Source: Octopus vulgaris (taxonomy: Eukaryota). From it: a DNA stretch of 64,000 nt. The notes beneath the pieces were generated by a model, which made no database searches, had not been told where the DNA came from, and saw only the letters and a program-made list of their open reading frames with translations. The position numbers and the translations under genes were made by a program. Positions 2,926 to 23,763 of the stretch are shown here, piece after piece (position 1 is the first letter of the stretch; the number at the start of each line of letters is the position of its first letter). The DNA is taken from NCBI GenBank assembly GCA_951406725.2, contig OX597828.1:52886001-52950000 (forward strand), in the 5' to 3' direction.

Positions 2926-3256
2926 CTAACAAATCTTTTTTACTCCCACTTAATTAGGACTGAGAGATACCAGCTTACTCAAAGTAATCGCACTCAACTT
3001 CCACCACTGCCTTAAATGGTTCCTGAACCTGCTGCATGCGTTCCTCAGTATGGCCCTGGGAAGATCGTTGAACACCTGCTTGATTTTTAACCACCAGCTC
3101 GACCTTGCTGTTACAGGTAGGGTGGGCGGTTTCTTTCTCAACCGCACCTCACACATAGCAATCCATGGGATTACAACGAGGAAATTAGAAAGCCAAAAAT
3201 TAAGGTTAGGGAAGGTGGAGAAGTTTTCCGACAACCACATCGGATATTTTTCTGGG

Positions 3257-3611
3257 AGTAGGAGTGGCTGTGTGGATAGTAGCTTGCTTACCAACCACAT
3301 GGTTCTTGGTTCAGATCCACTGCGTGGCACCTTGGGTAAATGTCTTCTACTATAGCCTCGGGCCGAACAAAGCCTTGTAAGTGGATTTGGTAGATGGAAA
3401 CTGAAAGAAGCCCGTCGTATATATGTATATATATGTATATCTATATATATGTGTGTGTGTATATGTTTGTGTGTCTGTGTTTGTCCCCCCCCCCCAACAT
3501 CACTTGACAACCGATGCTGGTGTGTTTAAGTTCCCGTAACTTAGCGGTTCGGCAAAAGAGACCGATAGAATAAGTATTAGGCTTACAAAGAATAAGTTCT
3601 GGGGTCGATTT
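3257..3611 (+). mobile_element. SINE family A, 3'-truncated, nested in the maT-like element
   Basis: Head AGGAGTGGCTGTGTGG (A-box-like), GGTTCAG (B-box-like), CCTTGGGTAAATG core-like block, then family body. Confidence 0.9.
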
Positions 3612-10495: not shown

Positions 10496-11485
10496 GACTT
10501 ACAGGATAAAGCTGGAGAGATATCAAGTCAGTCAGAAACAGACGGAATTTTCCAATTCTTCAAAATGTATTTATACATATGCATGCACCCACTGAAAATT
10601 TCTGACCTGGAGTTCAATAGAGAGTTACGGATCTCCTAGACAAACACTTTCCAGTCACTCACAGATACAGAAAAATATTTAATAAGCGTTCTGTGAAATT
10701 ATCATATAGCTGCTGCCCCAATATGAAGAGTATCATTACACGTGTTCAATAACAAGAGCCTGAATCCAGTTGACTTGAATCCTGTCCACTTGACCATATA
10801 TAAGGCAGAAGTTACTGCAACCCTACATAATAATATATCAGATAAGAAGACCTATATAGGAATATGTGAAGGTGAATTTAAACATCGCTATGCCAATCAC
10901 ATAGCCTCCTTCCGACATAGACACAAAAGTAAAGCTACTAAGTTGGCTGGCTACGTGTGGACTTTGAAAGATAACAAAACATCGCTTATGATTAAATGGA
11001 AAGTTATTGAGAAATCCATACCTTATGTGAATGGATCGAATAAATGTAGATTTTGCTTCTCTTAAGGACCGCAGATCCTGTTCAGATCTAAGATCCATAA
11101 CTCTCTATTGAACTCCAGGTCAGAAATTTTCATTGATTGCATGAATATAGATATATTTTGGAGAACTGGAAAATTCCACCTATTTCTGACTGACTTGGTA
11201 TCTTTTCAACCTTATCATTTAAGGTCTAAGTAGGAGAGCTCTTTTACTTTTTTACTTTTTATTTTTCACATTTTAGTTTCTGTTTTTCTTATTCCGTTTC
11301 CGTTGTTTCCTGTCTGCGTTTTCTATATGTTGCCTTCTCAATTTTATTTATTTATTATTTATTTTTTTTTGCGTTTCTTCCATTATTCAGTTTGTTATAT
11401 GTGCTTTTCATCTGAAGAATATATTTGAATTTTCTCAACATATGAAACTATTAATAGCGCTTTAATATATGTATTGTGACCTTTA
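10496..11485 (+). mobile_element. Penelope-like retroelement 3' fragment: GIY-YIG endonuclease remnant, pLTR, and inverted 5' pLTR segment
   Basis: Peptides RKIFNKRSVKLSYSCCPNM and IYKAEV...TYIGICEGEFKHRYANHIASF...KCRFC...LLNSRSEI are typical PLE C-terminal/GIY-YIG motifs. 10496-10633 is an inverted copy of 11092-11228. Confidence 0.88.
11412..11459 (+). ncRNA. Degenerate hammerhead-like motif in the Penelope pLTR
   Basis: CTGAAGA, stem II (ATAT..TTGA/TCAA..ATAT), GAAA, palindrome CTATTAATAG. The UH triplet and stem I are decayed. Confidence 0.55.
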
Positions 11486-12861: not shown

Positions 12862-12862
<1 letters not shown>

Positions 12863-13261
12863 GGAGTAAACACATAAATGTGAAACAAGGTGGAAAAAAG
12901 AGTACTCAAATACAAGTGGTAGAGTAATATGCTTTATTTAAAGCAGCAGAAAATTCAACAAAATCTGTTACTCTGAGTTTCTCGTTGCCGTTCATCAGAC
13001 AGTTTTTGCTAGAATGGAACCGATATATCAATTCAATCTAGACTCTTACAAACGCTACACCTTTAAAAAAAATGGACTTGTTTGATTGGCCCTTTAGAAA
13101 TAACGGTCAATCTTCGAGCGATAAACAAAAAAAGCTCAGCGTTTGTAAGAGTCTAGATTGAATTGATATATCGTTTCCATTCTAGCAAAAACTGTCTGAT
13201 GAACGGCAACGAGAAACTCAGAGTAACAGATTTTGTTGAATTTTCTGCTGCTTTAAATAAA

Positions 13262-13262
<1 letters not shown>
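12862..13262. mobile_element. Fold-back Penelope-type pLTR remnant (125-bp inverted arms, 81-bp spacer, 70-bp tail) in (TA)n
   Basis: 12932-13056 is the reverse complement of 13138-13262; each arm carries a hammerhead motif; same family as 23146-23372. Confidence 0.8.
13187..13234 (+). ncRNA. Type I minimal hammerhead ribozyme-like motif (mirror copy at 12960-13007 on -)
   Basis: AAAAACTGT-CTGATGA-ACGGCAACGA-GAAA-CTCAGAG-TA-ACAGATTTT. Stem I CTGT/ACAG plus AAAA/TTTT, stem II CG-GCAA-CG, stem III CTC/GAG, GUA triplet. Confidence 0.75.
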
Positions 13263-13323
<61 letters not shown>

Positions 13324-22706: not shown

Positions 22707-23110
22707 AAGGAGTGGCTGTGTGGTAAGTGGCTAGGCGCAGGAGTGGCTGTGTAGTAAGTAGCTTGCTAACCAACCATATGGTACCAGGTTCAGTCCCACT
22801 GCGTGGCATCTTGGGCAAGTGTCTTCTGCTATAGCCCCGGGCCGACCAATGCCTTGTGAAAGAAGCCTGTCGTATATATGTATATATATATATGTGTGTG
22901 CGTGTGTGTCTGTGTTTGTCCCCCTAGCATTGCTTGACAACCGATGCTGGTGTGTTTACGTCCCCGTTACTTAGCGGATCGGCAAAAGAGACCGATAGAA
23001 TAAGTACTGGGCTTACAAAGAATAAGTCCCGGGCTCGATTTGCTCGACTAAAGGCGGTGCTCCAGCATGGCCTCAGTCAAATGACTGAAACAAGTAAAAG
23101 AGAGTAAAGA

Positions 23111-23111: not shown

Positions 23112-23145
<34 letters not shown>

Positions 23146-23146
<1 letters not shown>

Positions 23147-23372
23147 TTTATTTTAAGCAGCAGAAAATTCAACAAAATCTGTTACTCAGAGTTTCTCGTT
23201 GCCGTTCATCAGACAGTTTTTTCTAGCAAAAACTGTCTGATGAACGGCAACGAGAAACTCAGAGTAACAGATTTTGTTGAATTTTCTGCTGCTTAAAATA
23301 AAGCATATTACTCTACCACTGGTATTTGAGTACTCTTTTTTCCACCTTGTTTCACATTTATGTGTTTACTCC
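23146..23372. mobile_element. Fold-back Penelope-type pLTR remnant: 158-bp near-perfect palindrome plus 69-bp tail, in (TA)n
   Basis: 23146-23303 is self-complementary about CTAG (23223-23226). Hammerhead motifs at 23174-23221(-) and 23228-23275(+). Same family as 12862-13262. Confidence 0.82.
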
Positions 23373-23395
23373 GATATATATATATATATATATAT

Positions 23396-23763
23396 AGGCG
23401 TAGGAGTGACTGTGTGGTAAGTAGCTTGCTTACCAAGCACATGGTTCTGGGTTCAGACCCACTGCGTGGCACCTTGGGCAAGTGTCTTCTACTATAGCCT
23501 CGGGCAGACCAAAGCCTTGTGAGTGGATTTAGTAGACGGAAACTGAAAGAAGCCCGTCGTATATATGTATGTGTGTGTGTGTGTGTATACGTTTGTGGCT
23601 GTGTTTGTCCCCCCTCCAACATCACTTGACAACCGGTGGTGGTGTGTTTACGTCCCCGTAAGTAAGCGCTTCGTCATTAGAGACCGATAGAATAAGTACT
23701 AGGCTCGGCTAAAGGTGGTGATCCAGCATGGCCACAGTCAAATGACTGAAACAAGTAAAAGAG
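23396..23763 (+). mobile_element. SINE family A
   Basis: Head GGCGTAGGAGTGACTGTGTGG through tail GTAAAAGAG. Confidence 0.9.

Follow-up and report, generated by a model that had tools for sequence, protein, structure and literature searches.

We propose that the palindrome at 23146-23303 of the window (the whole stretch of 64,000 nucleotides analysed here) is made of two head-to-head, extremely 5'-truncated ends of the pseudo-LTR (pLTR) of a Hydra-clade Penelope-like element (PLE), lying in a (TA)n microsatellite and most likely left by one insertion in which both cut strands primed on the same short RNA. We give this reading a probability of about 0.8. The element is of no new kind, the locus being the remnant of a Hydra-clade PLE, and the presence of the palindrome is explained without invoking a function. 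A preliminary description of this DNA had suggested an insertion mechanism to which it gave no name. It was right about retro-insertion, and the process already has a name, Penelope-like element retrotransposition (PMC8557442, PMC11167929).

Structure of the palindrome

An inverted-repeat search gives two arms of 84 nt (23141-23224 and 23225-23308), 96% complementary and with 0 nt of spacer between them. When the flanking TA letters, five per side, are excluded, the element-derived palindrome is 23146-23303, that is 2 x 79 nt or 158 bp, with mismatches at two positions (3206 and 3240 of the 3352-nt reference unit defined below). The loopless 158-bp palindrome with about two mismatches of the preliminary description is therefore real as described.

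The left-hand arm (23146-23224) has its sense strand on the minus strand and corresponds to about 3207 to 3282 of the element. Read on that strand it terminates in AATAAAG and directly abuts a (TA)n microsatellite (23112-23145), which is the target or part of it; this end, too, is as first described. By BLAST against the unit cut from a tandem copy, 23141-23226 matches reference positions 3287-3202 at 96.5%. The right-hand arm (23225-23303, plus strand; element 3200-3282) is 100% identical to the reference unit and extends past the palindrome as a 70-nt tail (23304-23373), the whole of 23221-23373 matching reference 3200-3352 at 100%. A long-arm tail had been noticed before; its length had been put at about 69 bp, with the end at 23372, and the final G is in fact 23373. 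The tail is the stretch between the two 3' end points of the family. It is followed by a second (TA)n microsatellite (23374-23396), a flank also found in sister copies. The arms meet head to head at 23224-23225, the palindrome centre, in a junction of the TTTTTT/CTAGCAAAAA type.

Another copy of the same family (copy 1) lies at 12862-13267 in the opposite orientation. Both copies map to the same unit by BLAST, as expected from the kinship that had been claimed with 12862-13262. The inverted-repeat search gives copy 1 arms of 130 nt and a spacer of 81 nt. Its tailed arm, 12862-13131, corresponds to reference 3352-3082 with the sense on the minus strand; after 6 nt of filler comes the untailed arm, 13138-13262, which equals reference 3158-3282 with the sense on the plus strand. 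A 28-mer of the motif has 4 occurrences in the window and none in 100 shuffles. Genome-wide there are 1844 forward and 1814 reverse exact copies (3,658 in all) against 0 for a reversed control. Chance origin is thus excluded.

Could the palindrome be an assembly artefact, the product of a chimeric or palindromic read? Contigs from public runs are too short to bridge the locus, and the few raw reads (13 and 8) lie on the tail only, so that none spans 23146-23373; as bridging we counted 31 letters on both sides of the palindrome centre, which no contig or read reached. Yet the same architecture, with end points specific to the element, is found at hundreds of places with different flanks, and an artefact would not respect the start sites of reverse transcription. 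We consider this explanation very improbable.

Beyond the TA repeats, both flanks (22971-23096 and 23412-23560) consist of extremely high-copy repeats, with summed word depths of 1e7 in public runs, and the (TA)n target of the palindrome seems to sit between two SINE-like copies. ARAGORN found no tRNA or tRNA-like head in these flanking repeats.

The parent element

A 3352-nt reference unit was cut from a head-to-tail pair, position 1 being the first letter after the tail. It has an ORF of 712 codons from position 69, a hammerhead core at 3216-3222, the AATAAAG end at 3282 and the tail at 3283-3352. In tandem copies the tail continues directly into the 5' UTR and the ATG (the ORF starts 69 nt after the tail), and hence the arms of the window copy represent the final stretch of a pLTR, namely the last 79 nt (plus the tail) of the pLTR of a retrotransposon of about 3.35 kb. 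Elsewhere the unit occurs full length, in tandem and as inverted pairs, and ORFs are enclosed between inverted motif pairs that are a long distance apart.

Neither the ORF nor 25 homologues gave any match to an RT family in Pfam, and PDB sequence and profile searches with the 712-aa protein gave no match. An AlphaFold model built on 25 homologues has a pLDDT of 88.5 and a pTM of 0.84. Its top match in Foldseek is the telomerase catalytic subunit TERT (3du5, E 1.5e-9); the next matches are DRT9, other telomerases (ranks 3-5), a retron, a group II intron, LINE-1 ORF2p and R2 RTs. As modelled, the RT is therefore nearest to telomerase RTs, as is the case in Penelope-like elements. The C-terminus aligns at 38% identity (E 1e-27) to a stretch of the homologue P0002, and that stretch passes the Pfam GIY-YIG model PF01541 with 26.2 bits against a cut-off of 22.6. 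The pattern VVY...YTG...R..H..E..N is present at residues 581-690 of the 712-aa protein. The predicted GIY-YIG endonuclease is thus C-terminal in the same ORF, as in EN+ PLEs. Partial tandems that create pLTRs, inverted 5'-truncated copies and a one-sided tail are all observed here and are likewise features of PLEs. PMC8557442 describes PLE insertions as 5'-truncated and arranged in partial tandems, frequently with an inverted 5'-truncated copy next to them, and with a tail at one end.

Inverted ends, TA-rich targets and a series of internal deletions could also suggest a fold-back DNA transposon or a MITE with long terminal inverted repeats and a preference for TA targets. We give this idea next to no probability. 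The internal ORF encodes an RT and a GIY-YIG nuclease and no transposase; the ends are asymmetric by 70 nt, unlike symmetric terminal inverted repeats; head-to-tail tandems with a period of 3352 nt exist; and every arm comes from the 3' end of the coding strand.

The Hydra clade of C-terminal EN+ PLEs was described by Craig, Yushenova, Rodriguez and Arkhipova (2021, PMC8557442). In that description its members insert into (TA)n, carry hammerheads and share a list of features: RWK, DKG changed to DKT, a linker of the CxCX5C type, and CxxC and CxH beside the conserved E and N. The protein encoded by our unit has RWK at 37, DKT at 113 (DKG being absent), C-x7-C-x5-C at 562-576, CRLC at 667 and CRH at 695. 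These motifs, together with the (TA)n target, place the predicted protein in the Hydra clade, an assignment made by motifs. The likeness covers the single ORF with a divergent RT containing RWK and DKT, the modified Zn-finger linker before GIY-YIG, CxxC and CxH around E and N, the hammerhead in the non-coding end and insertion into (TA)n. Hydra proteins in the supplement of PMC8557442 also have the strings RWKAFFFD, NPKCRLINPAK, DFYPSIS and IIMHARK in common with the window family, the comparison being one of strings. There are differences as well. Hydra elements are given as 'generally <3 kb', compared with a unit of 3352 nt here, and Hydra-1_Obim is listed in the same source with 2507 bp, 'no pLTR' and another hammerhead, while the present family has tandems and pLTRs.

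The protein has 1785 homologues with a length of about 700 aa, and most of them are encoded on contigs of 2.3-5 kb. Hundreds of these relatives are on metagenome or transcriptome contigs in that size range, and some are labelled environmental samples. Relatives of this sort are likely to be eukaryotic PLE sequences; PMC8557442 gives the same warning about its own matches in such data sets. P0002, a 'hypothetical protein' of 1086 aa from a public genome, contains the nuclease region twice (residues 475-541 and 942-1079) and is probably a gene model that spans a PLE partial tandem.

The hammerhead motifs

Back-to-back hammerheads had been reported for the palindrome. Rfam models (type I hammerhead RF00163 and related models) find no hammerhead at the gathering score, and lowering the threshold to E<=10 yields none either, whether 401 nt or a single arm is searched. 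The RNA fold of a single arm is no more stable than that of shuffles (z -0.07), so thermodynamics alone gives the hammerhead no support. By eye there is CUGAUGA, GAAA, a GUA cut site, a helix I of 4+5 bp and a near-palindromic helix III. Helix II has 2 bp with a GCAA loop and is flanked by A and A, making 10.1-11.1 an A-A mismatch. In the tailed arm the motif occupies 23225-23281 (plus strand), with helix I at 23227-23236/23267-23276, the core CTGATGA at 23237-23243, GAAA at 23254-23257, helix II as CG-GCAA-CG, helix III as ACTCAGAGT and a predicted cut after A23266. In the untailed arm it occupies 23168-23224 (minus strand), with the core CTGATGA at 23212-23206 on that strand.

Relatives of the element are more informative than the general models. 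We fetched from metagenome contigs 77 loci encoding relatives at 40-50% identity. Most of them have a CUGANGA...GAAA motif, which precedes the ORF by 166-220 nt or follows it by 78-290 nt; the hammerhead of the window family is 205 nt upstream of the ATG, where relatives have theirs. For covariation, 22 relatives in one register were chosen from 45 aligned by the spacing between GAAA and helix I. In this alignment 89.8% of cells are paired; shuffles give 69.0%, and sliding the partner gives 46.6% at most. Double changes number 63 against 19.2. Positions 10.1-11.1 are unpaired in 20 of the 22 relatives, and thus the A-A of the window family fits the clade. A covariance model (R1) was built from the 22 relatives only, excluding all sequence of the Octopus genome. 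It finds exactly four arms in the 64 kb, at 38.5-38.9 bits and E of about 1e-8 (these E-values come from a rough calibration of a home-made model), and the next best hit has 13.5 bits; the untailed arm of the palindrome scores 38.5 bits (E 1.3e-8) and the tailed arm 38.9 bits (E 9.8e-9). The back-to-back hammerheads therefore stand, though Rfam models miss them. With its core, a UH cut site, covarying helices I-III and the same place in the element, the motif belongs to the hammerhead lineage of this PLE clade, cleavage being a prediction.

Such cleavage is likely to be weak or to require dimers, because of the A-A at 10.1-11.1 and the 2-bp helix II. PLE hammerheads are described as weak in vitro and are thought to act as dimers (PMC4209133). 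The minimal metazoan PLE hammerheads of Cervera and De la Pena (2014, PMC4209133) resemble ours in being type I motifs located in the pLTR, in having a near-palindromic short helix III that suggests dimers and in occurring as opposite-strand pairs a few hundred bp apart; the same account reports pairs of hammerheads, one on each strand and separated by 100-700 bp, from genomes rich in PLEs. They differ in a conserved G10.1-C11.1 and a long helix II, where the window family has A-A, a helix II of 2 bp and a GCAA loop.

A transcript through the palindrome is predicted by RNA folding to form a hairpin of 79 bp (-130.5 kcal/mol, z -20.8). This hairpin would sequester both hammerheads, and because it buries them the stub is probably inert as a ribozyme. 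The same 79-bp hairpin is the reason that Rfam microRNA models score the palindrome at 40-48 bits, which is below threshold. We also considered an animal non-LTR retrozyme, which consists of head-to-tail non-coding repeats, a hammerhead in each of them, and has a circular RNA. This candidate was rejected: the locus is inverted, and it derives from the pLTR of a coding element.

Ends, flanks and junctions across the family

Genome-wide counts were obtained by pattern searches with exact motifs in the 2.8-Gb genome. At the first 100 motif places the motif recurs in pairs, minus then plus, 36 to 114 nt or 0.5 to 5.4 kb apart, and occasionally in same-strand pairs 3352-3365 nt apart. Sample A comprises all inverted pairs in the loci at these 100 places and in the window (n=39). 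Ultra-short palindromes were defined by the inner 14-mer, 0-30 nt and the inner 14-mer again, a pattern present at 657 places genome-wide; sample B comprises the first 50 of them and the window copy (n=51), and 14 of its members overlap with sample A. Both samples were drawn from the places at the head of the listing, which are on contigs C1 and C2. Since exact motifs were required, old copies are under-represented.

The two outer ends of a copy are of different kinds. Exactly one arm is tailed in 51 of 51 copies of sample B (45 by pattern, 6 by reading the printed arms). In sample A, 36 of 39 pairs have one outer end at reference 3350-3352 (or, in L028, a tail cut later) and the other at 3282-3287, the exceptions being L003 (a full tail and a partial tail of 22 nt), L035 (one end lost) and L054. 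Junctions counted over the genome are balanced accordingly, 1700 tailed against 1713 untailed followed by (TA)5. Either arm can be the longer in sample A, and partner arms may be as short as 10 or 17 nt. Single-armed copies of either end type occur (L011, L018, L027), and L056 has two untailed ends.

Flanks of (TA)n are present at 43 of 47 tailed and 43 of 46 untailed ends, compared with 2.0% of 20-nt windows in the 64-kb stretch. The untailed end reads (TA)n/CTTTATT in 45 of 46 parsed sister copies; short-arm ends, whose invariance it had been proposed to check, are nearly fixed. The tailed end, parsed in 47 cases, reads CTCCGG/TA in 38, CTCCGGTC/TA in 3 and CTCCG/ATAT (CTCCG+A) in 2. A reproducible insertion mechanism with fixed ends and TA targeting had been suggested from two copies; the near-fixed ends and the targeting hold for the family, and only strict invariance does not, the tailed end being somewhat variable.

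L003 (C1:1513158-1516185, element at 1389-1617) lies outside a pure TA repeat and has a 13-bp direct repeat, ACCTATCTATATA, on both sides, which is likely to be a target-site duplication. Among the copies sampled such a duplication is readable only at L003, the other non-(TA)n flanks being uninformative. L054 (C1:70897500-70900000) is unlike the usual architecture of the family: its two inverted arms, with 1.2 kb between them, both end near reference 3293, have no TA flanks and are enclosed by inverted pieces of reference 3032-3073.

The two arms of a copy have one source. A TTAAAAT or TTTAAAT variant is concordant between the arms in 45 of 45 parsed pairs (33 with one form, 12 with the other; 6 unparsed), where by our own arithmetic a concordance of about 0.61 per pair would be expected if arms were independent. 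Other common variants are also present in both arms, and private variants in one. Most arms match the majority sequence fully over 71 nt and intact ORFs are present, so the family is young.

At the inner side, the further-reaching arm stops at reference 3198-3203 in 42 of 51 copies, and none goes past 3198 though the search pattern allowed it. The 51 copies have 30 junction sequences, with overlaps of 0 nt (9 copies), 1 nt (17), 2 nt (7) or 4 nt (8), and filler or mutated letters in 10. The junction of the window copy is a recurrent asymmetric join, with one arm reaching to reference 3200 and the other to 3207, and not a mutated perfect palindrome. This type of join is found in 12 of 51 copies, the untailed arm reaching further in 8 and the tailed arm in 4. 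Both variant backgrounds carry the common junction types, which also occur in either orientation relative to the tail. The 30 junction types and the mixed backgrounds and orientations of the common ones speak for an independent formation of ultra-short copies.

The preliminary description had the arms folded back exactly at CTAG and proposed to test whether turning points coincide with micro-palindromes. In general they do not: the ends pile up at 3198-3203 with many junction sequences and 0-4 nt of overlap, and half of the central CTAG was created by the join itself. What was implied is a snap-back, in which the 3' end of a single cDNA folds back at a short palindrome and copies itself into the second arm. 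Arm lengths are indeed correlated, with both inner ends at reference 3192-3212 in 22 of 39 pairs; several long pairs are nearly symmetric (1685/1737, 1981/1971, 2684/2681); and the variants common to both arms and the short junction overlaps would agree with it too. But a self-copy would repeat the outer end of the first arm, and in all 51 copies of sample B and 36 of the 39 pairs of sample A the tail distinguishes one outer end from the other. The tailed arm would have to be the template, hence the longer one, and yet in 24 of the 51 short copies, as in several long ones, it is the untailed arm that extends further. In addition, DNA geometry suggests that a loop-free intramolecular hairpin cannot give a palindrome that has no spacer. 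With outer ends that are unlike and no fixed rule as to which arm is longer, snap-back fits less well than two separate primings, and we regard it as quite unlikely.

Another possibility is that the ultra-short palindrome is a non-autonomous element in its own right: a master palindrome would give a read-through transcript, which would be copied into cDNA from the tail end and inserted again as a whole, and the window copy would have inherited its shape. One tail per copy and common variants in both arms would follow trivially. There are as many as 657 ultra-short palindromes, two junction types make up 20 of the 51, and animal retrozymes have been put forward, in 10.64898/2026.07.22.740005, as non-coding derivatives mobilised by PLEs. 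Against a master stand the diversity of junctions (30 in 51 copies), a graded T4-T7 series and the occurrence of common types on either background and in either orientation. The one-tail rule also holds for long pairs whose junctions are unique, which means that the rule is set at pair formation. A master palindrome is thus unlikely, though it may account for part of the copies and deserves somewhat more credit than snap-back.

A model for the origin of the palindrome

The RNA of the family probably has its 5' end near reference 3200-3204. We base this on the pile-up of inner ends, on the spacing of a TATA (3172-3175) and a CCAAT (3124-3128), which lie about 30 nt and about 78 nt upstream of the pile-up in a promoter-like pLTR layout, and on a CTAGC kept at the same distance from the hammerhead in three close relatives. 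The promoter-like region, reference 3121-3205, corresponds to 13060-13140 of copy 1. Upstream pLTRs of two long copies begin at reference 3112 and 3126, and longer templates therefore exist. Hammerhead cleavage was considered as a cause of the pile-up and rejected: the predicted cut is at reference 3245 and the pile-up at 3198-3203.

We suggest the following order of events. A transcript of the family would start near reference 3200-3204, and the protein of the element would nick both strands of a (TA)n target. For one strand, priming would take place at the inner site, following AATAAAG, where a TA primer can pair with the CAUAU of the RNA; for the other it would take place at the outer site, 70 nt downstream. 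Both cDNAs would run to the RNA 5' end, or nearly so, which in the 5'-proximal pLTR is 80 and 150 nt away, and their 3' ends would then be joined head to head by a template jump or by 0-4 nt of microhomology. In the window copy cDNAs of 80 and 150 nt may have been joined through microhomology in a T-run. The cDNA snap-back of the preliminary description would accordingly give way to twin target-primed reverse transcription (TPRT) of one RNA from two start sites.

A second target strand that also primes on the RNA is known from L1 twin priming, which leads to inverted 5'-truncated structures. In that process a different portion of the one RNA becomes inverted, whereas both arms here start from almost the same 3' region.

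The transposition cycle of PLEs is still regarded as poorly understood (PMC8557442, PMC11167929). The closest biochemical parallel is Poseidon PAc of Anolis (Frangieh et al. 2024, PMC11167929). In TPRT in vitro the Poseidon protein cuts an AT-rich target on both strands and extends both, and its reverse transcription starts at two internal sites that bracket the tail. Two start sites around the tail, extension of both strands, AT-rich targets and a start internal to the RNA are all as proposed for our family. Poseidon belongs to another clade, its start sites are inside the ORF, its in vitro reactions have no strand preference for either site, and inverted dimers were not reconstituted (PMC11167929). 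Since the start site there was the same for top and bottom strands, that work does not predict an obligate rule of one of each. Compared with the canonical PLE insertion of PMC8557442, the family agrees in the inverted 5'-truncated copy, the tail at one end only and the microsatellite target. It differs in having a tail of 70 nt where 30-40 bp is given there, in that truncation here has reduced both copies to 79-83 nt, leaving only the palindrome, and in the one-tail rule, which is near-absolute in our samples. Three regularities of the family go beyond the published frame: each end type is used once per two-armed insertion, both arms come from one source, and the inner ends of the ultra-short class fall at one place. 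The proposed origin has to accommodate some awkward copies, namely L056 with its two untailed ends, L003 with a full and a 22-nt partial tail, and the single-armed copies.

A broader and tentative suggestion can be made, which we hold to be possible and rather less than evenly balanced. Every two-armed insertion might be the result of two TPRTs of one RNA molecule, each from its own fixed start site with 70 nt between the two, and the ultra-short palindromes, 657 in number, might be 'strong-stop' cDNAs, extending no further than from these sites in the 5'-proximal pLTR to the cap site and fused head to head. If correct, the long unexplained signature of PLEs, an inverted copy with a one-sided tail, would become a defined and testable reaction, the genome would be a natural catalogue of junctions, and there would be hundreds of transcripts with 79-bp hairpins as a source for RNA interference or A-to-I editing.

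Whatever the details of the reaction are, some consequences are practical. In annotation, palindromes that lack a spacer and carry ribozyme motifs are best masked as PLE stubs and should not be entered as microRNA-like hairpins or new ribozyme genes. For the mechanism, a young family with thousands of copies, the one-tail rule, concordant arms and a pile-up of inner ends provides quantitative constraints for in vitro tests. For the host, hundreds of perfect hairpins in (TA)n may feed small-RNA or editing pathways if they are transcribed.

A second PLE ORF fragment, which is diverged, is found in the window at 10633-11140 (plus strand), with 34-49% identity to the nuclease end. About 260 nt past it, the relatives-only hammerhead model gives a weak hit (13.5 bits, E 0.5) at 11400-11456 (plus strand). 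The two together are possibly what is left of another, decayed family.
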